NCBI GenBank assembly: GCA_963804815.1
Contig: CAWDRU010000002.1
Location: 450,754-514,753 of the forward strand
From: Blastocatellia bacterium
Lineage (GTDB): Bacteria > Acidobacteriota > Blastocatellia > UBA7656
Reading direction: 5' to 3'
Length of the DNA: 64,000 nt
Every line of letters starts with the position of its first letter. Position 1 is the first letter of the stretch. This document shows, piece after piece, positions 5,839 to 54,715 of this stretch. The position numbers and the translations under genes were made by a program. The notes beneath the pieces were generated by a model. That model was given only the letters and a program-made list of their open reading frames with translations. It was not told where the DNA came from and did not search any database.

Positions 5839-6067
5839 CCTTAAAGCCTCCAGCCTGTTTTTTGATTTTTTCGTGCGCTACATGCCCGGAAAAACCCGGC
5901 AAGAGCAACAAACGAGGTTATCTAATGAAATAAATGATTGTCAAGTTAAGCCTTCCGCAATCTCGACATCTATGCGCAGCTATCCAAACAGACTTCACGA
6001 CGGAGCCAGTGGGATGGTAAATTGAATGGCTAACTAGAAAGGGTAAAAAGAGCCGCGCGCTCATCGG

Positions 6068-7024
6068 ATGAAACTCAGGATACTACACCACGATCATTGC
6101 TTTGACGGATTCGCTTCAGCCGCCGTCTTCTCTCGCTTCTTCACTGAAAAGATAATGCCGGAGGCTGATATCGCTTACACGGGACTGGCTCATAAGCCTA
6201 ACCAGAAACTCATCGAAGAAGAACTGTTCGACGGTGACCAGAACGCCATAGTCGATTTCAAGTACAGCCCGTCGCCCCGGCTGACCTGGTGGTTCGACCA
6301 TCACCAGAGCGCTTTCCTTTCGTCGGAAGACGAAACACAATATCGAACCGGAACCTGGCCTACGAAGTTCTATGACCCGGATTATAAGTCATGCACGAAG
6401 TTCATCGCCGATACAGTCGCTCGAAAGTATGGCTTTGCGCCCCCGGATCTTGCGGAATTGATCCACTGGGCAGACATAATTGACGGCGCGCAGTACGATA
6501 CGGCAAAGACCGCCGTCGAATTGAATTCTCCCGCGCTCAAACTGATGCTTGTGATCGAAGCGAGCCGCGATAAAGCGGTAATGGACAGGATCATTCAAGG
6601 CATGCAGTCGCGCCCGCTGCTTGACCTCATAGACGACCCTGTGATCGCCGCCGCCTTCCGCCCGCTTTACGAGCGCCACGTCAGGACCATAGATTTGATT
6701 CGCAATGCCGCAGAGTGCGAGCGCGGAGTCGTCTATTTTGATCTGAGCCGGGAAGACGCCGAAGGCTACAGCAAATTCATCCCCTACTACCTGTTTCCTG
6801 AATGCGTCTATTCGGTCGGCGTGAGCCTTTCGCCTTCGCGCTCAAAAGTCTCCGTGGGGTTCAATCCCTGGAGCCCGACGCCGCGCCGCCATAATCTCGC
6901 TTCGATTTGCGAGCGGTACGATGGCGGCGGCCACGCAGTCGTCGGGGCCATCTCTTTCCGGCCTGACCAGATCGAACACGCGCGAGAAACGGCGAAAGAC
7001 ATCGCGGCGGAACTGCGAGCCTGA
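6068..7024 (+). CDS. DHH/DHHA1 family phosphoesterase (NrnA-like)
   Basis: DHH-family motifs are present: ILHHDHCFDGFASAA, WFDHHQS and a C-terminal GGGH (DHHA1). Confidence 0.65.
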   Translation: MKLRILHHDHCFDGFASAAVFSRFFTEKIMPEADIAYTGLAHKPNQKLIEEELFDGDQNAIVDFKYSPSPRLTWWFDHHQSAFLSSEDETQYRTGTWPTKFYDPDYKSCTKFIADTVARKYGFAPPDLAELIHWADIIDGAQYDTAKTAVELNSPALKLMLVIEASRDKAVMDRIIQGMQSRPLLDLIDDPVIAAAFRPLYERHVRTIDLIRNAAECERGVVYFDLSREDAEGYSKFIPYYLFPECVYSVGVSLSPSRSKVSVGFNPWSPTPRRHNLASICERYDGGGHAVVGAISFRPDQIEHARETAKDIAAELRA

Positions 7025-7034
7025 ATATTTATTC

Positions 7035-7937
7035 CTACAGCAGGTTCATGGGCACGGGATTCTGAGGGTCTGCGTAGTCATAAAATCCCCGCCCGCTCTT
7101 GCGCCCGTGTAATCCCGCAAGCACCATTCGCTTCAACAGCGGCGGCGGCGCGAATCGCTTCTCTTTGAACTCGTCGAACATTATGTTCGCGATGTAGTAA
7201 GTCGTATCCAGCCCGACAAAATCATTGAGCGTGAGCGGCCCCATCGGATAACCGCAGCCAAGCTTCATCGCATTGTCTATGTCTACGATTGAGCCTGCGC
7301 CTTCTTCCAGCGCGCGGATGGAATCGAGCAGGTAAGGGACGAGCAGTCGATTGACTATGAATCCTGTGCGGTCGGAAGTCTGGACGGGGACTTTGCCTAT
7401 TTCGCGCGCAAACTCTGTCGCTGTGGTGAAGACTTCGGGGTCTGATAGAATCGTGCGAACTATTTCGACCAGCTTCATGACAGGTACGGGATTGAAAAAG
7501 TGCATGCCGATAAAGCGGCGCTGGCGCTCGGCGCTCGTTGCCGTCATCATCTGCGTGATCGAAAGGCTCGATGTATTGGATGCGAATATCGTTTCCGGTT
7601 TGCATATCTGATCGAGCCGCGAATAGGTGCGATTCTTCTCGTCGAGATTTTCGATTATCGCTTCGATTATCAGGTCGGCGTCCTTTGCCTCTTCCAACTG
7701 AGTAGCGCCGCGCAATCGCGCGAGGGTTTTATCCCGCTCGCCTGCTGCGAGCCTGCCTTTTTCGACCATACGGTCGAGCTGCGTCACTATGCCGGACATC
7801 CCCTTATTCAAATACTCTTCTGAGACTTCGATCACAGTCACATCGCGGCCTGCCTGAGCGCAGACCTGAGCAATGCCCGCGCCCATCAATCCGCAGCCAA
7901 GCACCGCGACTTTATTTATTGCTATATTTATTGCCAT
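7035..7937 (-). CDS. hbd: 3-hydroxybutyryl-CoA dehydrogenase (3-hydroxyacyl-CoA dehydrogenase, NAD-binding)
   Basis: The Rossmann motif VAVLGCGLMGAGIAQV and the HFFNPVPVMKLVE and GFIVNRLL motifs are typical of HBD/HADH. Confidence 0.9.
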   Translation of the reverse strand: MAINIAINKVAVLGCGLMGAGIAQVCAQAGRDVTVIEVSEEYLNKGMSGIVTQLDRMVEKGRLAAGERDKTLARLRGATQLEEAKDADLIIEAIIENLDEKNRTYSRLDQICKPETIFASNTSSLSITQMMTATSAERQRRFIGMHFFNPVPVMKLVEIVRTILSDPEVFTTATEFAREIGKVPVQTSDRTGFIVNRLLVPYLLDSIRALEEGAGSIVDIDNAMKLGCGYPMGPLTLNDFVGLDTTYYIANIMFDEFKEKRFAPPPLLKRMVLAGLHGRKSGRGFYDYADPQNPVPMNLL

Positions 7938-10656: not shown

Positions 10657-11838
10657 TTAGAATGCTTCGATAATCATGGCAATGCCCTGACCGCCGCCGA
10701 TGCAGGCCGTCGCAAGCCCTCGTTTTTTTCCTCGCCGCCGCAGTTCAAGCAACAGGGTCAGAACCAGACGTGTGCCCGATGCTCCGAGCGGGTGGCCGAG
10801 CGCAATCGCGCCGCCGTTGACATTCGTGCGTGTGCGGTCAAGCCCCAGTTCTCGCTCGACCGCAAGGTACTGGCCTGCGAATGCTTCGTTGACTTCGACC
10901 AGATCGATGTCGTCGAGGCTCAAGCTGGCGGCGGCGAGCGCTTTCTGCGAGGCAGGCACAGGGCCAATGCCCATTATCTCAGGCGGCACACCCGCGACGC
11001 CCCACGAGACTATGCGGCCAAGCGGACGCGCTTCAAGCCTGTGCGCAGTCTTTTCGTCTGCAATGACTACGGCTGCCGCGCCATCAACTATGCCCGAAGC
11101 ATTGCCCGCCGTGACAAGCCCGTCTTTTGCGAAAGCCGGTTTGAGTCTGGAAAGCCCTTCTATAGTTGTGTCGGGGCGCAGATGATCGTCGCGCTCAAAC
11201 ATCCGGGTTGCTTTGCGGCCTTTGATCTCGACCGGCACTATCTCGTCTGCAAACGCGCCTGCTTCCCACGCGGCGGCTGCGCGTTGCTGGCTCAGCAGCG
11301 CAAACTCGTCCTGCATTTCGCGCGAGATTTCAAATTTGCGCGCGAGGTTTTCTGCCGTCTGCGCCATATAGTAGCCGCAATGCGTATCGAGCAATGCGAC
11401 CATCAGCGAGTCTTCGAGTTTGCCTTCGCCGAGTTTCAGCCCCCATCGCGCTCCGCGAATGACGTGCGGGGCCTGGCTCATCGATTCCATGCCGCCTGCA
11501 AGCACCGTCTCTGCTTCGCCGAGTTGAATCATCTGCGCGCCGGAGATGATTGATTGAATCCCTGAGCCGCAAAGTCGATTGACCGTCAGCGCCGGTTTGT
11601 CGATCGGCACACCGGCTTTCAACGCGACGTGGCGCGCGCCGTAAATGGCGTCGCCCGAAGTCTGCAAAGCGTTTCCGATTACTGTGTGATCAATCGCATC
11701 GGGCGAAATGTTGCTGCGTTCAATCGCCGCGCGCGCGGCAATTGCTCCCAACTCGTTAGCCGTCAGATCGCGAAGCGCGCCGCCATATTCGCCCATCGGG
11801 GTTCGCGCGCCGCCGAGTATCAAAATCTCTTTTGCCAT
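10657..11838 (-). CDS. acetyl-CoA C-acetyltransferase (thiolase II)
   Basis: 393 aa. Contains the LCGSG active-site Cys region, NVNGGAIALGHPLGASG and GLATACIGGGQG thiolase signatures. Confidence 0.95.
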   Translation of the reverse strand: MAKEILILGGARTPMGEYGGALRDLTANELGAIAARAAIERSNISPDAIDHTVIGNALQTSGDAIYGARHVALKAGVPIDKPALTVNRLCGSGIQSIISGAQMIQLGEAETVLAGGMESMSQAPHVIRGARWGLKLGEGKLEDSLMVALLDTHCGYYMAQTAENLARKFEISREMQDEFALLSQQRAAAAWEAGAFADEIVPVEIKGRKATRMFERDDHLRPDTTIEGLSRLKPAFAKDGLVTAGNASGIVDGAAAVVIADEKTAHRLEARPLGRIVSWGVAGVPPEIMGIGPVPASQKALAAASLSLDDIDLVEVNEAFAGQYLAVERELGLDRTRTNVNGGAIALGHPLGASGTRLVLTLLLELRRRGKKRGLATACIGGGQGIAMIIEAF

Positions 11839-11990
11839 AAATTCTCCGAAATGTTAATGACTGAATTTAAATTAACAGAACGGCATCGCTCGTTCAAATA
11901 TCGTACGAAATAGACGATAAATAATTGGTCGATTGACAGTAAGTTTAATCTCAAATAGAATTACAAAGCCGCATTTAAGAAAGCTCCCTA

Positions 11991-12246
11991 TTAAAATAAC
12001 GTGAATTCGACATAATGATCGAAGTAAAAGCCCTGAAAGGGCGAAATTCAATAGCCGTGGGTGAAACCCACGGTATGCAATGCCACTACCACACAAGCCC
12101 TGTAAGGGCGAAATAAATCACTTGGTTTATTTCGCCCTTACAGGGCTTATAGTTTATCTTGATGCAAGACACAGGGCGATGCCCTGTGCTATTGAATTTC
12201 GCCCTTTCAGGGCTGATTATTATGTCGAATTCACGTTAAAATAATT
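11991..12246. repeat. structured palindromic element of about 256 bp. Imperfect terminal inverted repeats of about 60 bp enclose three internal hairpins, possibly a MITE or structured ncRNA.
   Basis: The left arm ttaaaataacgtgaattcgacataat...agccctgaaagggcgaaattcaatagc is mirrored by gctattgaatttcgccctttcagggct...attatgtcgaattcacgttaaaataatt. Internal hairpins: ccgtgggtgaaacccacgg (12055-12073), a perfect 21-bp-arm hairpin gccctgtaagggcgaaataaa/tttatttcgcccttacagggc (12097-12146), and cacagggcgatgccctgtg (12170-12188). Confidence 0.6.
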
Positions 12247-12503
12247 GAATTGTCCCGGAGTGATTGACTGAATTTTCAATATCGCTCTTCAATGCAGTTT
12301 TCAAAAATGTTCTCTGCAAAAGCATCCGAGGTTCGCTGGAAATCGATCAGTTGATTAGGGAAGATTTTGCTTTTGCAAGCGGTCTAAATAGATGTTGGGA
12401 AAGTAATATACGAGCAAAGGGAGAAAACATCGAAGACTGGCAGTAACTGCTAATCAAAGCCATTCCCATTGCCCTCTTGACTGGATAAAATAAGGAGAAA
12501 CGG

Positions 12504-15500
12504 ATGAAGAACCTGAACGACCGGACGCTTACAGAACTGTCTAAACGACTGGCATATATAAGAAATAAGCCGCTACTGGTAGTTTCGAGTATTATGCTTC
12601 TATCTTTTGCCGTCATAGCTTTGCCAGTAGCAATGCTTAAAGTCACCGCCGCCGGACAGCCCGCCGAATCCCAGATAAGCGAAGCCGCTCAACTACAGAT
12701 CAAGGCGCTGCTGGACGAAAAAGAGTCGCGCACGCCAGCGCAACAGAAAATAGATTCGCAACTTATTTATGCCAGCAAGATGTTTCGCGGGCAAAGTATT
12801 GCCGCCGGTGTGCCGACTCTTGAAGTAGAAGTCGGACTCGACAGCTCTGGAAAAGCTACAGTTGATATTATAACGATAATTGATGATAAGGTGCTGTCCG
12901 CGCTCAAATCAGTCGGAGCCGAAATCCTTTATTCCTCCGAAGTCTATCAGAGCATCCGCGCTGTTGTACCGATTGACAGACTTGAAACAATCGCGGCTCT
13001 TCAGCAGGTTCGATTCATTCAGCCGAAACAGGAATCCAGAACTTCCCAGCGTGTGCAGCGACCGCCGAGCTTGCCCGGTCAGGTTTCGCAAACTCCCGGC
13101 TTCGATGCGCGCGCCGCGCAGGTGCGCGCTCAAGTGTCGGAAGCGATGACTGATGCCATCCTGCCCAACGGCACTCTGAGCGTCGGCAGCGTCGCCTCCG
13201 AGGGCGATTCTACGCACAGAGCCTCGACCGCGCGCGGCACATTCAATGTTAACGGAACGGGCATCAAGATCGGTGTGATTTCAGACGGTGTAACCAATCT
13301 TGCAGCCTCTCAGGCTTTAGGTGATCTTGGAACGGTGACTGTGTTGCCGGGGCAGGTTGGGAGCGGCGACGAAGGCACGGCGATGCTGGAGATCATTCAT
13401 GACGTAGCGCCGGGCGCGCAGCTTTTCTTTGCGACTGCCGACCCTACGATCACGCAATTTGCTCAAAACATCCGCGATCTGCGGACAGCCGGTTGCGACA
13501 TCATAGTTGACGACGTGGGCTATTTCGTTGAATCGGCATTTCAGGACGGTACGCCGGGCGTCACGAATACCAACGGTGGTGCCGTCACTCAAGCCGTGAA
13601 TGATGTTGTGGCAGCGGGCGCGCTCTATTTCTCGTCGGCTGCGAATTCAGGCAACAAAAATGACAACACCTCAACCACGTGGGAAGGCGATTTCGCCAAC
13701 GGCGGCACGCTTGCCGTTGTCCCAGGCGGCGGCACTGTTCATGATTTCGATCCGTCAGCCGCTGTCGCGCAGATTGATATAATCACTGTCGGCGGGGGAA
13801 CAGGCGTTCCCATCAACCTTTCGTGGTCAGACGCGCTCGGCGCTTCATCCAACGATTATGATCTGTTCATTCTGAACAATGCCGGAACAGCTGTCAGCAC
13901 TTCTTCCACAAACATTCAGAGCGGCACGCAAGACCCTTATGAGCAGGTCAATACAAATAACACAACAGGCCGTCGCGTTGTGATTCGCCAGAAAGCGGGC
14001 GCGGCCAATCGCTTCGTTCATCTGAGCCTCAACGGCGGGCTGATAACTTTCAACACTCAGGGCGAAACGCACGGGCATGCTGCGGCCTCCGGTTGTTATG
14101 GCGTAGCGGCGACCCCTGCCTTTTCAGCTTTCAATTTCCCGCCGCCTCTGAACGTCGGGCCTTATCCGGGGGCTTATAACGGAACCAGTCAGGTGGAATT
14201 TTTCAGTTCTGACGGCCCGCGCAAGTTTTTCTATAACGGCAACGGTACAGCCATCACTCCGGGCGACTTTTCATCAACCGGCGGCACGACTATTCAGCAA
14301 CCTGTTATCTCGGCTGCCGACGGCGTAGTCGTCACCGGAGTCGGAGATTTCCCGGTTCCATTCTTCGGCACGTCAGCCGCAGCGCCGCACGCTGCCGCCA
14401 TCGCGGGCCTCATCAAATCAGCCAATCCGTCATTCACACAGGCGCAGATCAAGACGGCTCTGACCACGACGGCTATTGATATAGAGACGGCTGGAACAGA
14501 CCGCGACGCAGGGTTCGGCATCGTCATGCCTTACCCGGCGCTGCAATCGCTCGGCGTGACGGGCAAGGCGTTTCTCGAACCGGGTTCGATTACGGCGACA
14601 GAAGTTTGCTGCAACTCCAACGGATTGATCGAGCGCGGCGAAAGTGCTTCACTAAACGTCGTCTTGAATAATCCGGGGCTGTTGAACGCGACGGGCATCA
14701 CTTCAACTCTGGCTACATCAACGCCGGGCGTCACTGTACTGAGCGGCTCATCTGCTTATTCAGACCTTGCTGCAACCTCTGGCACAGGGACGAACGCGAC
14801 GCCGTTCAGCTTCTCGTTAGCCACGAATTCGGCGGTTGATCTGGTAATTAATTTTACCTTGACGGTTAGCTATGCGGGCGGATGGAATCCGTCGCAGGTA
14901 ATCAACTTCACAGTCGAAACCGGTCGCAAGCCGATCACTACGGTATTAGATACTACAACTCCGACGACCAGCACCAGCTTCCCAACATCCATAACCGGAA
15001 CGCAGACAAATCTTGTTTTCCCGGATGATCCGCCAAGCACCTGCGCGGTTCCTACAGCATTTCCGGGCACGCTTACGTCAACGACTCCAAGGTTTGATTC
15101 TTACACTTTGACGAACACAAGTGGGGCCACCGCCTGCGTAACAATTACGATAACGGCTGACAAAACCGCACTCGGCGCTGTTCAGGCAGTTGCGTATAAC
15201 GGAGCTTTCAATCCGGCAAGCGTCGGCACGAATTATCTGGCGGATCCCGGATTCAGCTCTATAGTCTTCCCCGGCTATCCCGGAGTTTTCTCCGGCAATA
15301 TTCCTGCCGCGGGAACCCTCACTGTTGTTGTGGTTGAATTGAAATCACCCGCGAATGGTTTCCCAAGCGCGGTCGGCAGCAGTTACACGCTCAAGGTGGC
15401 GGGTCTGCCCGTGACCGCTGCGCCGACGCTGGCAAAGGTCGGCTCGTTCGACGCGATAAATTCTAACGACGGGCGCGTGCTTCTGAAATGGAACTCGACT

Positions 15501-17903
15501 TATGAGGTAGAAAATCTCGGCTACAACGTCTACCGCGAAGTCGCTGGCCAGCGCACGAAAGTCAATCCTCAACTCATCGCCGGTTCGGCGCTGATCACCG
15601 GCGACAAGGTTGCGCTCGGTTCAGGAAAGGGCTATGCGTGGGGAGATCAGCCGCAGTCAACAGCCTCGGCCCGCTACTGGCTCGAAGCCGTTGACCTCAA
15701 CGGCCAGAGCACCTGGACCGGACCCGTTTCGGTCAAGTCTTTCTCCGGCAATCCCGCCGCTAACCTCGAACAGTCCGCCCTGCTGACCAGAATCGGTCTG
15801 GCTCAGGCTCAGATGACCCTCGGTCAGGGGTCAACTCCTGTCGAAGCGCGCGCGCAGGTGGCGGCGGTTTCCGCTGCGGGCTTGCAGACTCAAACGGGGC
15901 TGGCCGGTCAGGCAGCCGTCAAGATAGCTGTCAGGCGCGAAGGCTGGTATCGAATCTCGCAAGGCGAATTGGTTGCGGCGGGACTTGATTCGAGAGTCGA
16001 TCCGCGCAACCTCCAACTCTATGTTGACGGGCAGGCAGTCGGGATGGTTGTCAACGGCGAGCAGGACGGCAGATTCGAGGCTGCGGATTCACTGGAGTTC
16101 TACGGCGTGGGACTCAACAGCGCAGCCACAGACGCACACGTCTACTGGCTGGCGGCAAGCACACAACCCGGCACACGCATAAAGGCAACGCGGGCGACGG
16201 GCGGAACAGCGACCTCAGCAAGCTTCCCCTACAGCGTGGAACGCAAAGACCGGACGTTGTATTTCTCAGCCTTGAAAAACGGGGATGTGGAGAACTTCTT
16301 CGGGCCGGTCGTATCAGCGACGGGAATCGAGCAGACGCTGGCGCTGACAGGACTCGCGGCAGGGGCGGCATCTGCGAGCCTTGACGTGTCGCTGCAAGGG
16401 GTGACGGGACTGACGCATCAGGTGAGAGTGCTGCTCAATGGAGCGAACGTCGGAGTAGTGAACTTCACCGGGCAGAGTCAGGGCAAGGCTCGCCTTGCCC
16501 TATCACAGAGCCAGTTGCGAGAAGGAGTGAACACGGTGCAGCTGACGGCGCTGGGAGGCAGTTCGGACATAAGCCTTGTTGAAAGCCTGAGAGTCACCTA
16601 TCAGCGGAAGTACACGGCAGACAACAACGCGCTGAGGCTGAACGCGGCAGGCGGGCAGCAGGTGACGATAGGAGGGTTCACATCGACCGGCATACGAGTG
16701 ATGGATGTGACGGATTGGAACAACGTGCAGGAGTTGACCGGAGCAGTATTGGGAGGGAAGACGAACGGAAGCATCACAATAACGGTGCCGGGAACAGGGC
16801 CGCGAGTGTTGTATGCGTTTTCGTCAGACCGGGCGATGAGCGTGACGCCAAAGGCGAACACGCCGTCGAACCTGAGGGGAGGAAGCCCTGCCGCCGATTA
16901 CATAATGATAACGACAAGAGAGATGGCGGCGAGCCTGAATCCGTTGAAGACGTTGAGAGAGAGTCAGGGCCTTGCAGTAGCGGTCGTGGACGTAGAGGAC
17001 ATCTATGACGAGTTCAGCTACGGGAACAAGAATGCGCAGGCGGTGAAGGATTACCTGACGCTGGCCAACAGTAGTTTTGGAAGGCCGGTGAGATTCGTGC
17101 TGCTTGCAGGAGATGCGAGCTATGACCCGAAGAATTATCTGGGATACGGAGACAGCGACCTTGTGCCGACGAAGCTGTATGACAGCGGGTACATGGAAGC
17201 GGCGACAGATGATGGGTTCGTGGACTTCAATGGAGACAATGTGCCGGATGTGGCGATAGGGAGGTTGCCGGTGCGCAACGCGACGGAAGCGGCGGCAATG
17301 GTAGGAAAGATAGTTCGATATGAAAGCTCAGCAGGGTCGAATACGGTGCTGCTGTCATCAGATCTGGGAGACGGGTATAACTTCGGGTCAGTGAACACAG
17401 CGCTGAGAGGACTGCTGCCGTCCGGAGTGGGGGTGAGCGAAATAAACCGAGGAAGCGCGGATGACGGGGTAGTTAGAAATCAGCTTCTTGAGGCGATCAA
17501 CGCGGGACAGAAGATCGTGAATTATAATGGACACGGAAGCGTGACTCTGTTGAGAGGCAACATTCTGACAGGAAGTGATGCGGCAACAATGACAAACACC
17601 CAGAAGCTGTCGGTGTTTGTGATGATGACGTGTCTGAATGGATACTTTGATGATCCGGGAGTAGACAGCCTGAGCGAGAGCGTGATGAAGGCAGCGGGAG
17701 GAGCAGCGGGAGCGTGGGCATCAGCTGCGCAGTGCGAACCGTTCGGACAAGCACTGATGAATCAGGAGCTATATCGTTTGTTGTTTAACGGTCAGAATCT
17801 GACGCTGGGCGAAGCGACGGCGAAAGCAAAAGCCTCGGTCAGCGACGTTGACGTGCGAAGGTCGTGGATCTATTTCGGAGACCCGGCGATGAAGCTGAAG
17901 TAA
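12504..17903 (+). CDS. giant secreted dual-protease protein. Signal anchor, subtilase-like (S8) domain, Thr/Ser-rich beta and FN3-like middle region, C-terminal gingipain-like (peptidase C25) domain.
   Basis: 1799 aa with a ribosome-binding site ataaggaga. S8-like motifs: IGVISDGV (Asp), IIHDVAPGA (His), SAANSGN (Asn) and GTSAAAPHAAAIAGL (Ser). C25-like region: FVLLAGDASYDP...DVAIGRLPV...IVRYES...NYNGHGSV (His) ...MMTCLNGYF (Cys). A terminator hairpin lies downstream. Confidence 0.9.
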   Translation: MKNLNDRTLTELSKRLAYIRNKPLLVVSSIMLLSFAVIALPVAMLKVTAAGQPAESQISEAAQLQIKALLDEKESRTPAQQKIDSQLIYASKMFRGQSIAAGVPTLEVEVGLDSSGKATVDIITIIDDKVLSALKSVGAEILYSSEVYQSIRAVVPIDRLETIAALQQVRFIQPKQESRTSQRVQRPPSLPGQVSQTPGFDARAAQVRAQVSEAMTDAILPNGTLSVGSVASEGDSTHRASTARGTFNVNGTGIKIGVISDGVTNLAASQALGDLGTVTVLPGQVGSGDEGTAMLEIIHDVAPGAQLFFATADPTITQFAQNIRDLRTAGCDIIVDDVGYFVESAFQDGTPGVTNTNGGAVTQAVNDVVAAGALYFSSAANSGNKNDNTSTTWEGDFANGGTLAVVPGGGTVHDFDPSAAVAQIDIITVGGGTGVPINLSWSDALGASSNDYDLFILNNAGTAVSTSSTNIQSGTQDPYEQVNTNNTTGRRVVIRQKAGAANRFVHLSLNGGLITFNTQGETHGHAAASGCYGVAATPAFSAFNFPPPLNVGPYPGAYNGTSQVEFFSSDGPRKFFYNGNGTAITPGDFSSTGGTTIQQPVISAADGVVVTGVGDFPVPFFGTSAAAPHAAAIAGLIKSANPSFTQAQIKTALTTTAIDIETAGTDRDAGFGIVMPYPALQSLGVTGKAFLEPGSITATEVCCNSNGLIERGESASLNVVLNNPGLLNATGITSTLATSTPGVTVLSGSSAYSDLAATSGTGTNATPFSFSLATNSAVDLVINFTLTVSYAGGWNPSQVINFTVETGRKPITTVLDTTTPTTSTSFPTSITGTQTNLVFPDDPPSTCAVPTAFPGTLTSTTPRFDSYTLTNTSGATACVTITITADKTALGAVQAVAYNGAFNPASVGTNYLADPGFSSIVFPGYPGVFSGNIPAAGTLTVVVVELKSPANGFPSAVGSSYTLKVAGLPVTAAPTLAKVGSFDAINSNDGRVLLKWNSTYEVENLGYNVYREVAGQRTKVNPQLIAGSALITGDKVALGSGKGYAWGDQPQSTASARYWLEAVDLNGQSTWTGPVSVKSFSGNPAANLEQSALLTRIGLAQAQMTLGQGSTPVEARAQVAAVSAAGLQTQTGLAGQAAVKIAVRREGWYRISQGELVAAGLDSRVDPRNLQLYVDGQAVGMVVNGEQDGRFEAADSLEFYGVGLNSAATDAHVYWLAASTQPGTRIKATRATGGTATSASFPYSVERKDRTLYFSALKNGDVENFFGPVVSATGIEQTLALTGLAAGAASASLDVSLQGVTGLTHQVRVLLNGANVGVVNFTGQSQGKARLALSQSQLREGVNTVQLTALGGSSDISLVESLRVTYQRKYTADNNALRLNAAGGQQVTIGGFTSTGIRVMDVTDWNNVQELTGAVLGGKTNGSITITVPGTGPRVLYAFSSDRAMSVTPKANTPSNLRGGSPAADYIMITTREMAASLNPLKTLRESQGLAVAVVDVEDIYDEFSYGNKNAQAVKDYLTLANSSFGRPVRFVLLAGDASYDPKNYLGYGDSDLVPTKLYDSGYMEAATDDGFVDFNGDNVPDVAIGRLPVRNATEAAAMVGKIVRYESSAGSNTVLLSSDLGDGYNFGSVNTALRGLLPSGVGVSEINRGSADDGVVRNQLLEAINAGQKIVNYNGHGSVTLLRGNILTGSDAATMTNTQKLSVFVMMTCLNGYFDDPGVDSLSESVMKAAGGAAGAWASAAQCEPFGQALMNQELYRLLFNGQNLTLGEATAKAKASVSDVDVRRSWIYFGDPAMKLK

Positions 17904-18367: not shown

Positions 18368-21300
18368 ATGAAAAAACTGAACGGCTCAAAGCTTACCAGA
18401 TTGCCGAATCGCCCGGCACATAAAAAGATCAACCCTGTTCTGATACTTTCGAGTATCCTTTTATTGTCGATTGCCATTATAGCTTTGCCAGGCCTGAGGA
18501 CGAGAGTCACCGCTGCGGGCCAGCCCCAAAAGAGCAGCGCCGAATCGCAGATAAGCGAAGCCGCTCAACTACAGATCAAAGCACTGCTGGACGAAAAAGA
18601 GTCGCGCACGCCAGCGCAACAGAAAATAGATTCGCAACTTATTTATGCCAGTAAGATGTATCGCGGGCAGAGCGTCGCCGCAGGGATTTCAACCCTCGAA
18701 GTGAATGTCGGACTTGAAAGCGACGGAAGAGTAGTCGTTGACCTGACGGCCTATGTGGTCGATGACAAACTGCTCGCCGGGATCAAGGCAGCCGGGGGCG
18801 AAGTCATGATCGTTTCCGCGCCTTATGGCAGCGTCCGCGTCAAAGTTTCCATAAATCAGTTAGAGACAATCGCGGGCTTCTCGCAGGTTCGGTTCATTCA
18901 GCCGGAGCAAAAAGCTCTGGTGTCGTCTCAGCGCACAAGGCCGACCGACAACGTGTCGGATCAGGCCGCGCAGTCTCCGAGTTTTGAAGCGCGCGCCGAG
19001 TCTGTGCGCGAACAACTCTCTGACGCACTGAATAACGCCATACTGCCCAACGGCACACTCAGCACCGGCAACTTCGCGTCCGAAGGCGACACCACGCATC
19101 GAGCCACAACCGCGCGGGGCACTTTCAATGTTGACGGAACGGGCATCAAGATCGGCGTCCTCTCAAACGGCGTGGTCAGTTTGGCTCAGGCTCAGGCGAC
19201 GGGCGATCTTGGACCGGTGACCGTGTTGGTGGGACAAACAGGTTCAGCCGACGAAGGCACGGCGATGCTTGAGATCGTTCACGACATCGCTCCGGGTGCG
19301 CAGCTTTTCTTTGCCACAGGCTTGCCGACCATCACCCAGTTTGCGCAAAACATCCGCGACCTGCGCACGGCGGGTTGCGACATCATCGTTGATGATCTGG
19401 GCTACTTTGTAGAATCGCCGTTTCAGGACGGGCAGACCGGAACCACCAACACCAACGGCGGCGTTGTCACTCAAGCCGTCAACGATGTCGTAGCCGCAGG
19501 CGCGCTGTATTTTTCGTCAGCGGCAAATTCGGGCAACAAGAATGACAACACGTCAGGCACGTGGGAAGGCGATTTCGTCAGCGGCGGCACGCTGGCCCTT
19601 ATCCCCGGCGGCGGATTAGTTAACGACTTCGACCCGTCGGCAGCGGTCGCGCAGAATAACCTGCTCACCCTCGGCGGAGGCGCAACCTCTCCCATCAGTA
19701 TTGCGTGGTCAGACCCGCTCGGCGGCTCATCGAACGATTATGACTTGTTCATCCTGAACAATGCGGGAACGACTGTGGTCGCGTCTTCGACCAATACTCA
19801 GAGCGGCACGCAGGACCCTTATGAACAGACGGGCAGCAACACGACTAACAACCGGGCCGTGATTCGCCAGAAAGCGGGTGCGCTCAATCGCTTCCTTCAC
19901 CTGTCAACCAACAGAGGGCGTCTAACTTTCAGCACCGATGGCGAAACGCACGGCCATGCCTGTGCCACCGGAGCCTACGGCGTGGCTGCAACGCCAGCCT
20001 ACTCGCCGTTCAACTTCGCGCCGCCGCCGGTATTCGGCCCTTTCCCCAACTTCTACAGCACAGCGGATAAAGTCGAAACCTTCAGTTCTGACGGCCCGCG
20101 CCGAATTTTCTTTAACGGTAATGGTACGGCCATAACCCCCGGCGATTTTTCATCGACTGGCGGTCAGGTCTTGCAGCAACCGCTCATCACGGCTGCCGAC
20201 GGCGTGGCTGTAACGGGCGTGGGAGGATTCGCGTCGCCGTTCTTCGGAACCTCGGCAGCAGCGCCGCACGCCGCCGCTATCGCGGGACTAATCAAATCGG
20301 CCAATCCGTCGTTTACGCAGGCGCAGATCAAGACGGCCCTGACCACGACGGCGCTTGATATTGAAGCGGCAGGCACAGACCGCGATTCCGGGTTCGGCAC
20401 CATCATGCCTTACGCCGCTCTGCAATCGCTCGGTGTGACCGGCAAAGCCTTTATCGAACTCGGCACGGCCACGGCCACGGAAACCTGTTGCAACCTGAAC
20501 GGTTTGATCGAACGAGGCGAAGGCGCTTCGCTCAACGTCGTTTTAAATAATCCGGGATTGTTGAACGCGACGGGCATCACTTCAACTCTGGCTACTACAA
20601 CACCGGGCGTAAGCATACTGAACAACACGTCAGCCTACACAGACCTTGTGGCGACCTCCGGCACAGCGGCGAACACAACGCCGTTCGCCTTCTCATTGTC
20701 CACAATTGCTGCGGTTGATGTGACGATTAATTTCACCTTGACGGTCAGTTACACGGGCGGGTGGAATCCGTCGCAGGTAATCAATTTCACGGTTGAAACA
20801 GGCCGTAAATCCATTACCACGACTATAGACACCACAGCGCCGACGACCAGCACCAGCTTCCCGACGACGGCGACAAACAACCAGACAGCGCGTCTGTTCC
20901 GCGCAGACCCGGCCAGCACCTGCGCCGTTCCGCACGCATTCCCCGGAACATCGGGAGCAGGAAACAGGAGGTTCGATTCTTACACCTTGACCAATCCTGC
21001 CGGTTCTCCGACGGCCTGCGTCACAGTAACGCTAACGATTGACAAAGCTGCGACAGACTTTTTACAGGCTGTCGCATATTCGGGCAGCTTTAACCCGGCC
21101 AGTTTGGGCACGAACTTCATAGCCGATATTGGGGCCAGTCCCAGTATTGGTTATGCCAAGTCTCTTTCTTTCAATCTTGCCGGAGGCGCGACTGTTGTTA
21201 TTGTCGTAAACGAAACAACAGCCGCTGGCGCGGGAACAAACACGCCTTACACGTTGAGGGTGGCGGGCATACCCATAACCGCTGCGCCGACGCTGGCAAA

Positions 21301-23767
21301 GGTCGGCTCGTTTGACGCGATAAATTCTAACGACGGGCGCGTGCTTCTGAAATGGAACTCGACTTACGAAGTAGAAAATCTCGGCTACAACGTCTACCGC
21401 GAAGCCAGCGGCCAGCGCACGAAAGTCAATCCTCAACTCATCGCCGGTTCGGCGCTGATCACCGGCGACAAGGTTGCGCTCGGTTCAGGAAAGGGCTATG
21501 CGTGGGGAGATCAGCCGCAGTCAACAGCCTCGGCCCGCTACTGGCTCGAAGCCATTGACCTCAACGGCCAGAGCACCTGGACCGGACCCGTTTCGGTCAA
21601 GTCTTTCTCCGGCAATCCCGCCGCTAACCTCGAACAGTCCGCCCTGCTGACCAGAATCGGGCTTGCTCAGGCTCAGATGACCCTCGGTCAAGGGTCAACT
21701 CCTGTTGAATCACGCGCGCAGGTGGCGGCGGTTTCCGCCGCGGGCTTGCAGACTCAAACGGGGCTGGCCGGTCAGGCAGCCGTCAAGATAGCTGTCAGGC
21801 GCGAAGGCTGGTATCGAATCTCGCAAGGCGAATTGGTTGCGGCGGGACTTGATTCGAGAGTCGATCCGCGCAACCTCCAACTCTATGTTGACGGGCAGGC
21901 AGTCGGGATGGTCGTCAACGGCGAGCAGGACGGCAGATTCGAGGCTGCGGATTCACTGGAGTTCTACGGCGTGGGACTCAACAGCGCAGCCACAGACGCG
22001 CACGTCTACTGGCTGGCGGCAAGCACACAACCCGGCACACGCATAAAGGCGACGCGGGCGACGGGCGGAACAGCGGCCTCGGCCAGCTTCCCCTACAGCG
22101 TGGAACGCAAAGACCGGACGTTGTATTTCTCGGCCCTGAAAAACGGGGATGTGGAGAACTTCTTCGGGCCGGTCGTATCAGGGACGGGAATCGAGCAGAC
22201 GCTGGCGCTGACAGGACTCGCGGCAGGGGCGGCATCTGCGAGCCTTGACGTGTCGCTGCAAGGGGTGACGGGACTGACGCATCAGGTGAGAGTGCTGCTC
22301 AACGGAGCGAACGTCGGAGTAGTGAACTTCACCGGGCAAAGTCAGGGCAAGTCGAGCCTTGTCATATCACAGAGCCAGTTGCGAGAAGGAGTGAACACGG
22401 TGCAGCTGACGGCGCTGGGAGGCAGTTCGGACATAAGCCTTGTTGAAAGCCTGAGAGTCACCTATCAGCGGAAGTACACGGCAGACAACAACGCGCTGAG
22501 GCTGAACGCGGCAGGCGGGCAGCAGGTGACGATAGGAGGGTTCACATCGACCGGCATACGAGTGATGGACGTGACGGATTGGAACAACGTGCAGGAGTTG
22601 ACCGGAGCAGTATTGGGAGGGAAGACGAACGGAAGCATCACAATAACGGTGGCTGGAACAGGGCCGCGAGTGTTGTATGCGTTTTCGTCAGACCGGGCGA
22701 TGAGTGTGACGCCAAAGGCGAACACGCCGTCAAACCTGAGAGGAGGAAGCCCTGCCGCCGACTACATAATGATAACGACAAGAGAGATGGCGGCGAGCCT
22801 GAATCCGTTGAAGACGTTGAGAGAGAGTCAGAGCCTTGCAGTAGCGGTCGTGGACGTAGAGGACATCTATGACGAGTTCAGCTACGGGAACAAGAATCCA
22901 CAGGCGGTGAAGGATTACCTGACGCTGGCCAACAGCAGTTTTGGAAGGCCGGTGAGATTCGTGCTGCTTGCAGGAGATGCGAGCTATGACCCGAAGAATT
23001 ATCTGGGATACGGAGACAGCGACCTTGTGCCGACGAAGCTGTATGACAGCGGGTACATGGAAGCGGCGACAGATGACGGGTTCGTGGACTTCAATGGAGA
23101 CAATGTGCCGGATGTGGCGATAGGGCGGTTGCCTGTGAAAAACGCGACGGAAGCGGCGGCAATGGTAGGAAAGATAGTTCGGTACGAAAGTTCAACAGGG
23201 TCGAATACGGTGCTGCTGTCATCAGATCTGGGAGACGGGTATAACTTCGGGTCAGTGAACACAGCGCTGAGAGGACTGCTGCCGTCTGGAGTGGGGGTGA
23301 GCGAAATAAACCGAGGCAGTGCGGATGACGGGGTAGTTAGAAATCAGCTTCTTGAGGCGATCAACGCGGGACAGAAGATCGTGAATTATAACGGGCACGG
23401 AAGCGTGACTCTGTTGAGAGGCAACATTCTGACAGGAAGTGATGCGGCAACAATGACAAACACCCAGAAGCTGACGGTGTTTGTGATGATGACGTGTCTG
23501 AACGGATACTTTGATGATCCGGGAGTAGACAGCCTGAGCGAGAGCGTGATGAAATCGAATGGAGGAGCAGCGGGAGCGTGGGCATCGACAGCGCAGTGCG
23601 AACCGTTCGGACAAGCACTGATGAATCAGGAGCTATATCGTTTGTTGTTTAACGGTCAGAATCTGACGCTGGGCGAAGCGACGGCGAAAGCAAAAGCCTC
23701 GGTCAGCGACGTTGACGTGCGAAGGTCGTGGATCTATTTCGGAGACCCGGCGATGAAGCTGAAGTAA
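18368..23767 (+). CDS. tandem paralogue of the giant S8 + C25 dual-protease protein
   Basis: Exactly 1799 aa, with the same motifs (GTSAAAPHAAAIAGL; NYNGHGSV; MMTCLNGYF). The C-terminal 830 aa are about 98 percent identical to the first copy. The N-terminal 970 aa are about 70 percent identical. Confidence 0.9.
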   Translation: MKKLNGSKLTRLPNRPAHKKINPVLILSSILLLSIAIIALPGLRTRVTAAGQPQKSSAESQISEAAQLQIKALLDEKESRTPAQQKIDSQLIYASKMYRGQSVAAGISTLEVNVGLESDGRVVVDLTAYVVDDKLLAGIKAAGGEVMIVSAPYGSVRVKVSINQLETIAGFSQVRFIQPEQKALVSSQRTRPTDNVSDQAAQSPSFEARAESVREQLSDALNNAILPNGTLSTGNFASEGDTTHRATTARGTFNVDGTGIKIGVLSNGVVSLAQAQATGDLGPVTVLVGQTGSADEGTAMLEIVHDIAPGAQLFFATGLPTITQFAQNIRDLRTAGCDIIVDDLGYFVESPFQDGQTGTTNTNGGVVTQAVNDVVAAGALYFSSAANSGNKNDNTSGTWEGDFVSGGTLALIPGGGLVNDFDPSAAVAQNNLLTLGGGATSPISIAWSDPLGGSSNDYDLFILNNAGTTVVASSTNTQSGTQDPYEQTGSNTTNNRAVIRQKAGALNRFLHLSTNRGRLTFSTDGETHGHACATGAYGVAATPAYSPFNFAPPPVFGPFPNFYSTADKVETFSSDGPRRIFFNGNGTAITPGDFSSTGGQVLQQPLITAADGVAVTGVGGFASPFFGTSAAAPHAAAIAGLIKSANPSFTQAQIKTALTTTALDIEAAGTDRDSGFGTIMPYAALQSLGVTGKAFIELGTATATETCCNLNGLIERGEGASLNVVLNNPGLLNATGITSTLATTTPGVSILNNTSAYTDLVATSGTAANTTPFAFSLSTIAAVDVTINFTLTVSYTGGWNPSQVINFTVETGRKSITTTIDTTAPTTSTSFPTTATNNQTARLFRADPASTCAVPHAFPGTSGAGNRRFDSYTLTNPAGSPTACVTVTLTIDKAATDFLQAVAYSGSFNPASLGTNFIADIGASPSIGYAKSLSFNLAGGATVVIVVNETTAAGAGTNTPYTLRVAGIPITAAPTLAKVGSFDAINSNDGRVLLKWNSTYEVENLGYNVYREASGQRTKVNPQLIAGSALITGDKVALGSGKGYAWGDQPQSTASARYWLEAIDLNGQSTWTGPVSVKSFSGNPAANLEQSALLTRIGLAQAQMTLGQGSTPVESRAQVAAVSAAGLQTQTGLAGQAAVKIAVRREGWYRISQGELVAAGLDSRVDPRNLQLYVDGQAVGMVVNGEQDGRFEAADSLEFYGVGLNSAATDAHVYWLAASTQPGTRIKATRATGGTAASASFPYSVERKDRTLYFSALKNGDVENFFGPVVSGTGIEQTLALTGLAAGAASASLDVSLQGVTGLTHQVRVLLNGANVGVVNFTGQSQGKSSLVISQSQLREGVNTVQLTALGGSSDISLVESLRVTYQRKYTADNNALRLNAAGGQQVTIGGFTSTGIRVMDVTDWNNVQELTGAVLGGKTNGSITITVAGTGPRVLYAFSSDRAMSVTPKANTPSNLRGGSPAADYIMITTREMAASLNPLKTLRESQSLAVAVVDVEDIYDEFSYGNKNPQAVKDYLTLANSSFGRPVRFVLLAGDASYDPKNYLGYGDSDLVPTKLYDSGYMEAATDDGFVDFNGDNVPDVAIGRLPVKNATEAAAMVGKIVRYESSTGSNTVLLSSDLGDGYNFGSVNTALRGLLPSGVGVSEINRGSADDGVVRNQLLEAINAGQKIVNYNGHGSVTLLRGNILTGSDAATMTNTQKLTVFVMMTCLNGYFDDPGVDSLSESVMKSNGGAAGAWASTAQCEPFGQALMNQELYRLLFNGQNLTLGEATAKAKASVSDVDVRRSWIYFGDPAMKLK

Positions 23768-54358: not shown

Positions 54359-54458
54359 AAACAAGATGGTAGCAGATCAATGAGGAAGCGCGTTCCGAGT
54401 GCCGATATCAGGCAAACAGCAGCATTCGGCCTGACATCGGCGCTCCGCATTGTTGGCA

Positions 54459-54600
54459 GGGCTGTAACAAAGTCGGTTGACAGACATGGTAGGGGCAGGG
54501 CTTGTCCCTGCCCGAATGGCTGAAAGCCATGACAGATCATCGCCTATCGGCGATCCGGGCAGGGACAAGCCCTGCCCCTACAGTTACTTTGTTACAGCCC
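54459..54600. mobile_element. MITE-like element: 16-bp perfect terminal inverted repeats flanked by an 11-bp direct repeat, with a nested palindromic interior
   Basis: TIRs agggctgtaacaaagt (left) / actttgttacagccct (right). Flanking direct repeat gcattgttggc at 54448-54458 and 54602-54612. Internal 26-bp inverted repeat gtaggggcagggcttgtccctgcccg / cgggcagggacaagccctgcccctac, plus small hairpins atggctgaaagccat and atcgcctatcggcgat. Confidence 0.6.
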
Positions 54601-54645
54601 TGGCATTGTTGGCTCTTGCCTTTGAATTTAAGGAAAGCGTCGGTT

Positions 54646-54715
54646 ACAGTACCGCGAGCGGTAGCGAGCGGGTCTGCGGTCAAGCCAACCTGCTCGCTAC
54701 CGCTCGCGGTACTGT
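54646..54715. repeat. perfect 24-bp inverted repeat with a 22-nt spacer immediately upstream of apbE
   Basis: acagtaccgcgagcggtagcgagc ... gctcgctaccgctcgcggtactgt, followed by a further palindrome cctgtacagg. Confidence 0.6.

Follow-up and report, generated by a model that had tools for sequence, protein, structure and literature searches.

The stretch of DNA analyzed here (64,000 nucleotides of contig CAWDRU010000002.1, positions 450,754 to 514,753, assembly GCA_963804815.1; hereafter the window) belongs to a Blastocatellia bacterium of the phylum Acidobacteriota and carries, between two divergently oriented genes, an elaborate intergenic palindrome which is the subject of this work. To the left of the palindrome a thiolase-rhomboid operon is located on the minus strand (10657-11838; thiolase MGA9768072.1), and to the right, on the plus strand, a gene of a 1799-aa peptidase of the S8 and C25 families (12504-17903). 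A contig of an NCBI metagenome-assembled genome (MAG; locus L001 of our set) is identical to the window over the element region.

Repeat search placed a near-perfect palindrome of 256 bp at window positions 11990-12245, thus confirming the preliminary description of this DNA, made by a model from the sequence alone. The palindrome is far above chance expectation: its predicted RNA fold reached -154.6 kcal/mol vs. -60 kcal/mol for shuffled sequences (z -20.2), the RNA fold of the opposite strand about -154 kcal/mol (z -21.9), and the DNA fold -97.6 kcal/mol (z -20.9), i.e., z was about -20 on both strands. The outer inverted arms (11990-12020 and 12215-12245) are 31 nt long and 87% complementary, and the next arms inward (12029-12055 and 12188-12214) are 27 nt long and 100% complementary. 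Between them the left side alone carries an extra 8-nt stretch, GAAGTAAA (12021-12028), which finds no counterpart on the right and forms an unpaired bulge in the fold; the outer arms of about 60 bp mentioned in the preliminary description are real as inverted arms but consist of two separate blocks rather than one. The three internal stem-loops reported there are also present, at 12056-12073, in the centre and at 12170-12188. The central hairpin (12095-12148) has arms of 26 nt (12095-12120 and 12123-12148) with 96% complementarity, the first 23 bp being perfect, and is made up of two inner small hairpins with their GAAAT/ATTTC feet, placed face to face. The motif GCCCT-NNN-AGGGC occurs four times (starting at 12030, 12097, 12134 and 12201, with 0.06 occurrences expected by chance) and not five times as had been claimed, the fifth instance being probably the reversed AGGGC-GAT-GCCCT within the right 8-bp hairpin. 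The halves of the palindrome are not simple mirror copies, as the 8-bp hairpin and the 22-nt spacer differ wholly between left and right, and both 8-bp hairpins are fully paired despite this difference (CCGTGGGT/ACCCACGG vs. CACAGGGC/GCCCTGTG).

The core of the element consists of two inverted copies of a 91-nt unit, in which a small hairpin, a 22-nt spacer, an 8-bp hairpin, a 12-nt linker and another small hairpin follow one another. A covariance model of this unit, R1, built from 24 aligned instances, matched the left half-unit at 12028-12118 of the minus strand (93.6 bits, E 1.7e-21; its DNA fold consists of three hairpins) and the right one at 12125-12215 of the plus strand (95.9 bits, E 4.6e-22; DNA fold -20 kcal/mol, z -6.7), with a gap of 7 nt between the two. 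On the minus strand the left half-unit proceeds from the inner small hairpin (12097-12109) through the spacer, the 8-bp hairpin (12056-12073) and the linker GCTATTGAATTTC to the outer small hairpin (12030-12042), and on the plus strand the right half-unit proceeds from the inner small hairpin (12134-12146) through the spacer, the 8-bp hairpin (12170-12188) and the linker to the outer small hairpin (12201-12213). The conserved feet of the unit are ATTTCG on the 5' side of the small hairpin and GCTA on the 3' side of the 8-bp hairpin (TAGC on the other strand).

Both halves also matched, above the gathering score of 37, the Rfam family RF01687, Acido-Lenti-1: at 12029-12073 of the minus strand with 43.5 bits and at 12170-12214 of the plus strand with 42.0 bits. 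These matches, which cover the 8-bp hairpin, the linker and the small hairpin, are full length (model positions 1-46), and the central hairpin is composed of partial Acido-Lenti-1 matches (linker and small hairpin). The structure prediction and covariance search suggested in the preliminary description thus yielded a strong fold and two matches to a known family. The 46-nt Acido-Lenti-1 motif represents the outer part of the 91-nt unit, which is twice the length of the Rfam model, and the third small hairpin is found also in the flanks of the original Rfam seeds, about 24 nt upstream of the 46-nt motif. A CRISPR-like reading, prompted by the 67-nt spacing of the small hairpins, was rejected, as there are only two direct copies per half and the halves are mirror-symmetric; a nearby match to the Rfam family CRISPR-DR6 is noise (E 5.8).

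To place the element among its relatives, 185,579 species-representative genomes were scanned with a 17-base core pattern derived from it, ATTTCGCCCTNNCAGGGCT. The scan returned at least 117 loci in genomes labelled with at least 10 phyla; Bacteroidota, Acidobacteriota, Planctomycetota, Verrucomicrobiota, Omnitrophota, Pseudomonadota and others were among the matches listed. In most of these matches the core is followed, about 22 nt on, by an 8-bp GC-rich hairpin, then by GCTA and then by a second small hairpin. With R1, 177 unit matches were obtained in the first 100 loci fetched and 44 in a further 24, and the full 91-nt unit was present in 89 of the first 100. Gene-less head-to-head doublets with inner gaps of -7 to 54 nt (7 nt in the window) were found 27 times in these 100 loci, and unit pairs with gaps of 452-502 nt, holding the gene of a Y1 transposase, seven times; the arrangement seen in the window is the family's commonest form. 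Units at separate loci of one genome are 84-100% identical, the unconstrained spacers included, and one Blastocatellia MAG carries eight units across four loci, with gene-less doublets (L019, L027, L031) besides a gene-carrying copy (L006). A different arrangement was observed in L121 (1950-2530), where the Y1 gene is followed downstream by a tandem array of at least five half-units, all on the same strand and recurring about every 66 nt; it resembles the Acido-Lenti-1 arrays of Lentisphaera araneosa in the original seed alignment (74-nt period).

The Y1 gene brought the family into connection with a particular enzyme. In 10 loci among the matches listed the core directly abuts the start or the stop of a 150-aa open reading frame (ORF); in several of them the motif stands right after a frame ending in ...YDEKYVWD*, or an inverted copy stands right before a frame starting with MGQSLVKNY. 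Two of these ORFs were scanned (L068 and L006), and both matched PF01797 (Y1_Tnp) with E of about 1e-23 and the NCBIfam IS200/IS605 transposase model NF033573 with 57-58 bits at a cut-off of 55. The nearest solved structures are the IS608 TnpA transposases, acting on hairpins of single-stranded DNA. The motifs visible in the alignment (D/N-H-[VI]-H, WQ, Y---Q--HH and a conserved C-terminal tail) match those of the TnpA-Y1 "subclass 1.2" (Quentin et al., 2018; PMC6006769), to which the 150-aa proteins are assigned here putatively, on this motif match.

In the gene-carrying locus L006 the left side is arranged as outer small hairpin, GAAATTCAATAGC, 8-bp hairpin, spacer, inner small hairpin with GAAAT, and 14 nt; the Y1 gene follows, and then 5 nt, ATTTC with the inner small hairpin, spacer, 8-bp hairpin, GCTATTGAATTTC and the outer small hairpin. 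The parts of the window element succeed one another in this order too, except that the Y1 gene is replaced by 14 nt, so that the central hairpin occupies the place which belongs to the gene in the gene-carrying relatives. In terms of Rfam matches, L006 reads as Acido-Lenti-1 on the minus strand, 553 nt including the 453-nt gene, and Acido-Lenti-1 on the plus strand; in the window the two matches are 96 nt apart. The 453-nt Y1 gene is bracketed by the same two modules in L006, L121-L125 and others; inverted units flank it, in the layout known as a REPtron, in L006, L023, L028, L044, L068 and L080, and the Rfam matches diverge around it in L006, L122, L123 and L125.

The association was also tested independently of the motif. 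Protein similarity was the sole criterion in picking seven Y1 homologues, which were retrieved together with their flanking DNA, four from Acidobacteriota-like loci (L121, L122, L123, L125) and three from Bacteroidota (L130-L132). The unit adjoins the Y1 gene in all seven, the full two-sided layout being present in all four Acidobacteriota-like loci, while the three Bacteroidota loci have R1 unit matches adjoining the gene. RF01687 gave no gathering-level match on these Bacteroidota loci, hence the Rfam model covers only part of the family. As a background check, R1 found nothing in four thiolase loci (L126-L129, about 25 kb). The Y1-carrying contigs were mostly short, as would be expected if assemblies break at the repeats. 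In Bacteroidota the Y1 gene and its hairpin arrays lie in or beside defence-type loci: between hsdS and hsdR of a type I restriction system in L130 (1074-2640); next to a duplicated N-terminal hsdR-like fragment, judged by eye, in L080 (6270-7925), where the whole Y1 unit is tandemly duplicated; and between Fic and Schlafen/AlbA_2 genes in L132 (1313-2007).

The preliminary description had made its proposals depend on conservation of the stems in related genomes, and all three stems proved to be compensatorily conserved. In an alignment of 147 distinct sequences 96.9% of the stem cells were standard pairs, two-sided changes occurred at 16 of the 18 pairs and 355 cells were compensatory, these figures leaning towards the structure because the alignment was fitted to it and the sequences are related. 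Slid alignments, used as controls, were at most 63% paired, and no shuffle reached the observed values. The 8-bp hairpin, which lies outside the constraint of the search pattern, covaries at all eight pairs. The stem cells comprised 2411 Watson-Crick pairs, 20 G.T and 70 A.C, so that G.U accounts for 0.8% of them and A.C is in 3.5-fold excess on the strand modelled in Rfam. Such scarcity of wobble pairs suggests a constraint acting on DNA rather than on one RNA strand, and it follows from the excess of A.C that any wobble-tolerant strand would be the complement of the Rfam-modelled one; this inference of the strand from the mismatch bias is suggestive only, as the copies share ancestry.

These data bear directly on the view adopted in Rfam, where Acido-Lenti-1 is a small RNA. 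According to it, the element would represent a functional structured RNA in two divergent copies, each facing a flanking gene and acting in trans or as a 5' leader. The strong covariation and the two Rfam matches above gathering agree with this, transcription of the element would be possible from a good promoter-like site at 11933-11961, and the central hairpin with the T-rich sequence following it scores as terminator-like. However, the divergence follows from the palindrome itself and recurs with every doublet whatever its neighbours, the units bracket a transposase gene, A.C outnumbers G.U 3.5 to 1 on the very strand that is modelled, G.U being as rare as stated above, and the conserved unit, with its second small hairpin, is twice as long as the Rfam model. 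Moreover, the element is absent upstream of orthologous thiolase genes, and Weinberg et al. (2010; PMC2864571), who described Acido-Lenti-1, reported many copies per genome in the seed alignment, some of them in tandem arrays. We regard an RNA function as very unlikely. The flanking of a transposase gene by the units, the symmetric doublets, the nearly pure Watson-Crick stems and the mismatch bias opposite to the Rfam strand together suggest a mobile DNA repeat of the REP type, rather than an RNA gene, behind the "Acido-Lenti-1 small RNA". Of the "structured small RNA" proposed preliminarily, the label RF01687 is thus retained, and the RNA nature appears very improbable, the evidence favouring a DNA repeat. 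The association with group II introns noted by Weinberg et al. for Lentisphaerae was considered as well and rejected, no intron RNA being detected in the window.

Orthologous thiolase loci were available from four related metagenome contigs (L126-L129, at least 90% protein identity), and the element is absent from all of them. They retain only the thiolase-proximal promoter-like region, their homology with the window ending about 95 nt upstream of the start codon. This promoter-like region, TTGAAC-17-TAATTT, is conserved in the relatives; it is no more than about 60 nt away from the start codon and is situated outside the element. In L129 (230-520) a putative small XRE-like helix-turn-helix gene on the minus strand stands upstream of the thiolase; elsewhere this place is taken by a protease or S41 peptidase gene. 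The junction upstream of the thiolase promoter is a rearrangement hotspot. The earlier proposal of a cruciform regulatory region controlling both operons found no support, for the loci without the element keep the proximal promoter-like region. Conversely, the statement that the structure is not a simple terminator holds, as the element stands between divergent genes and its architecture recurs whatever the neighbours.

The architecture of the element, the association of its units with the Y1 gene, the compensatory conservation of the three stems, the multiple similar copies within genomes and the absence from orthologous loci are thus matters of direct observation. On this basis we consider it probable that the core at 12028-12215 consists of two repeat units of a subclass-1.2 Y1 transposase, joined head to head without the gene, i.e., that it is a non-autonomous element of the REPIN/BIME kind. 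The gene-carrying loci are laid out like a REPtron; with the gene absent from the window element, its inner hairpins abut and a long hairpin results, like that of REPINs and BIMEs. By analogy with characterized Y1 enzymes, the doublet is probably mobilized as single-stranded DNA by a Y1 enzyme encoded elsewhere. The hairpins would form on single-stranded DNA, for example on the lagging-strand template, and would be recognized by this enzyme, which would cut and rejoin the strand so that the doublet is copied or moved. The protein would likely bind at the near-invariant small hairpin with its ATTTCG foot, the variable 8-bp hairpin having probably a purely structural part. In the window the doublet most likely has the role of a passenger; it lies upstream of the thiolase promoter, enclosed by a 21-bp inverted repeat peculiar to this locus, which a 9-bp direct repeat borders.

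The same layout could have arisen in another way, if a Y1 gene once stood between the half-units and was deleted in situ, so that the doublet never moved and is a decayed REPtron. The architecture does equal that of a gene-carrying locus minus its gene, and the window holds no Y1 gene. Nevertheless, tight gene-less doublets with a palindromic centre are the commonest form in the 100 loci, several occurring in one genome beside a gene-carrying copy, the four related thiolase loci are empty at this position, and the central 14 nt (AAATCACTTGGTTT) are akin to the centres of other doublets (AAATCGTTCGGATT in L031) and do not look like a deletion scar. The doublet centre merely continues the palindrome and is for this reason uninformative on deletion of a Y1 leader. 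Considering these facts, we find such decay in situ quite unlikely.

Several observations weigh against a mobile doublet served by a Y1 enzyme. The Y1-driven mobilization is extrapolated from IS608 TnpA and E. coli TnpA(REP). There is no Y1 gene in the 64-kb window, which contains just two units, R1 giving zero further matches outside the element. The NCBIfam model of REP-associated tyrosine transposases (REP_Tyr_transpos) gave 22.4 bits at a cut-off of 80, and a search for the GTAG foot among the conserved feet of the unit found none, the canonical 5' GTAG/GTGG foot of REPs being missing here. The at least 117 loci were picked by a DNA pattern derived from the element, so the sequence conservation of the small hairpin is inflated. 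The comparison of orthologous intergenic regions, proposed in the preliminary description, established the absence of the element in four loci and gave no clean empty site among the relatives, as the synteny upstream of the thiolase differs in every one. Finally, the outer arms and the 9-bp direct repeat are not explained by HUH transposition, which produces neither terminal inverted repeats (TIRs) nor target-site duplications (TSDs).

This outer shell requires separate consideration. The left outer arm, CGTGAATTCGACATAATGATC (12000-12020), is locus-specific and lies outside the repeat family, and the right one, GATTATTATGTCGAATTCACG (12215-12235), is complementary to it at 20 of 21 positions. 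Just outside the arms the 9-mer TTAAAATAA is found at 11991-11999 and, with nine of nine positions identical, at 12236-12244. Read as a continuation of the palindrome, the 9-mer would agree at only six of nine positions, all three mismatches being precisely the ones by which it becomes a direct repeat; it looks like a TSD. BLAST homology to the family members is confined to about 12025-12214. A search for further copies, as had been advised, revealed a very large family of the core and nothing of the outer arms elsewhere: no second arm copy was present in the window (up to 3 mismatches) or in 130 fetched loci (up to 4 mismatches), and the exact 21-nt arm pattern with one position free had no match in viral contigs. 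A single match in the JGI metagenomes was rejected as chance, being situated within a hydrolase-like coding region.

From the outside, then, the element resembles a classical cut-and-paste miniature inverted-repeat transposable element (MITE) of the DDE-like kind, with 21-bp TIRs CGTGAATTCGACATAAT(G/A)ATC and the 9-bp TSD TTAAAATAA, the doublet being its cargo or a later insertion. Besides the inverted repeats directly abutting the direct repeat, outer modules beyond the doublet are known in other lineages (L013/L032; L049/L052, at least 125 nt). At the same time, TIRs bordered by a direct repeat are present here, but several copies sharing these ends were not found in the searched sets; the element minus the doublet is only 50 bp long; and no DDE transposase with such ends was seen. 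We therefore rate this possibility as unlikely. The "MITE of a different family", which comes nearest to the truth among the three candidates of the preliminary description, survives as a non-autonomous repeat of a very large family, of the REP/REPIN type and linked to Y1, and not as a classical MITE with TIRs and TSDs.

Alternatively, the shell could be of purely local origin: either template switching at the doublet extended the palindrome into the flank, or the doublet sits in the loop of an older 21-bp hairpin which served as a cruciform, an operator or an attenuator for the protease operon. Such an origin would be in line with the uniqueness of the outer arms to this locus, with the position of the doublet exactly at the loop of the outer hairpin, 8 nt of the loop being left on one side, and with the promoter-like site just upstream. 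Yet it concerns only the outer 50 bp, the core being a family member regardless; it has no comparative support, as there is no relative with the protease neighbour in the protein collection; and a simple older hairpin does not predict the 9-bp direct repeat. We thus hold the local or exapted palindrome to be improbable as an account of the element. For the shell alone three origins come into consideration: an outer module peculiar to the lineage or the shell of a DDE-type MITE, a landing of the doublet in the loop of an older hairpin, and template switching that lengthened the palindrome.

Two further observations concern the surroundings of doublets. In a Planctomycetaceae MAG (L052, 5990-6440, and L049, 2460-2770) a far longer inverted repeat has the doublet at its centre and extends by at least 125 nt more per side with about 75% identity, part of this extension recurring at a second locus; some lineages, then, have larger composite elements. 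The same organism was also assembled independently, and in that assembly the Logan contig SRR28022924_16564 (L002) terminates precisely where the left arm has its inner edge (12020), which could be due to a repeat-induced graph branch or to a population polymorphism at the doublet boundary.

As to transcription at the locus, a sigma-70-like promoter match, TTGACA-17-TAGAAT (11933-11961, plus strand, 11 of 12 consensus positions), is directed rightwards through the element to the protease gene. In number the sigma-70-like sites found correspond to the shuffle expectation, and this one is a consensus match only. The element may have an effect on transcription of the protease. Boxes of the form GATTGAC(A/T)G(T/A)A..TTT occur three times around the element (11931-11952, 12262-12283 and 11853-11868), one of them forming the -35 part of the site just described; they could result from chance, or from repetition of a promoter or operator sequence.

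Some other features of the window were recorded. The tandem ORFs at 12504-17903 and 18368-23767 encode exactly 1799 aa each; the first, the sole one scanned, contains a subtilase S8 domain and a C-terminal gingipain-like C25 domain, and a cluster relative of the second is named S8 family peptidase by NCBI. At 90% identity these proteases had no relatives in the protein collection besides partial copies that come from an NCBI MAG of the same organism. Two intergenic palindromes are located at the other side of the window: a nested one at 54454-54605, whose inner arms begin with GTAG (GTAGGGGCAGGGCTTGTCCCTGCCC...), like the canonical REPs with a GTAG foot, and a hairpin with 28-bp arms and 96% complementarity at 54646-54715. 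Kinship of our element with the palindromes of 54454-54715 was considered and rejected, since they belong to other families with a GTAG foot and share zero modules with it.

The general kind of system to which we assign the element, namely a Y1 gene with cognate hairpin repeats and gene-less doublets, is well known. With regard to its parts, papers naming Acido-Lenti-1 in the literature searched (subscription journals being outside its scope) deal neither with transposases nor with repeats, and besides the original description it is named only in passing, in studies of unrelated subjects; in the later literature searched there was no paper revisiting subclass 1.2. Within the same scope, this pairing of enzyme and repeat and the three-hairpin unit appear to be undescribed. 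Whether Acido-Lenti-1 is indeed the missing cognate DNA repeat of subclass-1.2 Y1 proteins, so that the two make up a new REPtron/REPIN-type system with a 91-nt three-hairpin module and a 19-nt core ATTTCGCCCTTTCAGGGCT across genomes labelled with at least 10 phyla, its functional strand being probably the complement of the Rfam one, is in our opinion an evenly balanced question. If so, the Rfam family would have to be re-filed as a mobile DNA repeat; annotation pipelines report it as a small RNA gene, which is likely a mis-annotation in Acidobacteriota and probably in other phyla. It would also provide a candidate DNA substrate for a widespread Y1/HUH subclass (at least 6,000-7,800 distinct proteins per search), for which neither a repeat nor an end structure is on record from the sole systematic study in the literature searched; binding and cleavage are now testable with defined oligonucleotides. 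For the locus itself the consequence is modest: a probable passenger between divergent operons, which may interfere with transcription from the left promoter-like site.

Comparison with the systems described so far shows where the element agrees with each of them and where it departs. With Acido-Lenti-1 as defined in Rfam it shares the two-hairpin layout with the GCUA...AU..CG linker, both halves of the doublet scoring above gathering, and its host, an acidobacterium of the Blastocatellia, is within the stated range of the family; in Rfam, however, the motif is a small RNA gene of unknown function, whereas here it comes with a third hairpin, in inverted doublets and in the flanks of a Y1 gene. 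The proteins have the length (about 148-150 aa), motifs and C-terminal tail of TnpA-Y1 subclass 1.2. Its genes were characterized as low-copy, "without IS properties" and with no associated repeats recorded (Quentin et al., 2018; PMC6006769); in contrast, three-hairpin units flank the gene in every locus examined here, and the family is abundant in Acidobacteriota and other phyla. As in the IS200/IS605 family and the gene-less PATEs, the transposase passes the NCBIfam equivalog cut-off, hairpins are located at the gene ends and gene-less derivatives exist. The end hairpins of IS200/IS605 elements are, however, in the same orientation, on one strand and without inverted repeats, whereas the flanks here are inverted and multi-modular, and around the window element there are, moreover, the 21-bp inverted arms and the 9-bp direct repeat.

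TIRtrons, i.e., Y1 genes (TIRYT) flanked by inverted repeats, were described with acidobacterial cases included (Di Nocera et al., 2013; PMC3733652), and, as far as that description goes, they are alike in having longer inverted repeats around the Y1 gene, some partly self-complementary and some forming dispersed families of dimers. TIRYTs represent subclasses 2.1, 2.2 and 2.5, are longer, possess helix-turn-helix domains and have a GGGGWSAS repeat motif (Quentin et al., 2018; PMC6006769); they are therefore not subclass 1.2, and from our unit they are set apart by description only. A further parallel is offered by the REP/BIME/REPIN-RAYT systems, such as the E. coli REPtron and the REPINs of Pseudomonas fluorescens: there, too, intergenic DNA holds short GC-rich hairpin repeats whose inverted doublets give a long hairpin, a Y1/HUH gene stands between inverted copies of these repeats, each gene-carrying copy has many gene-less counterparts, and assemblies tend to break at the repeats. 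Nevertheless, the enzyme here is of class 1 (subclass 1.2, IS200-like) and not a class 2 RAYT, the unit is a composite of three hairpins and 91 nt vs. a single palindrome of 20-40 nt, and the small-hairpin core is common to genomes labelled with many phyla, whereas REPs are lineage-specific. With an enzyme of another class, a more complex unit and a more broadly conserved core than the REP-RAYT systems of E. coli and Pseudomonas, the family described here bears on the question of how frequently HUH enzymes and hairpin repeats have become paired.

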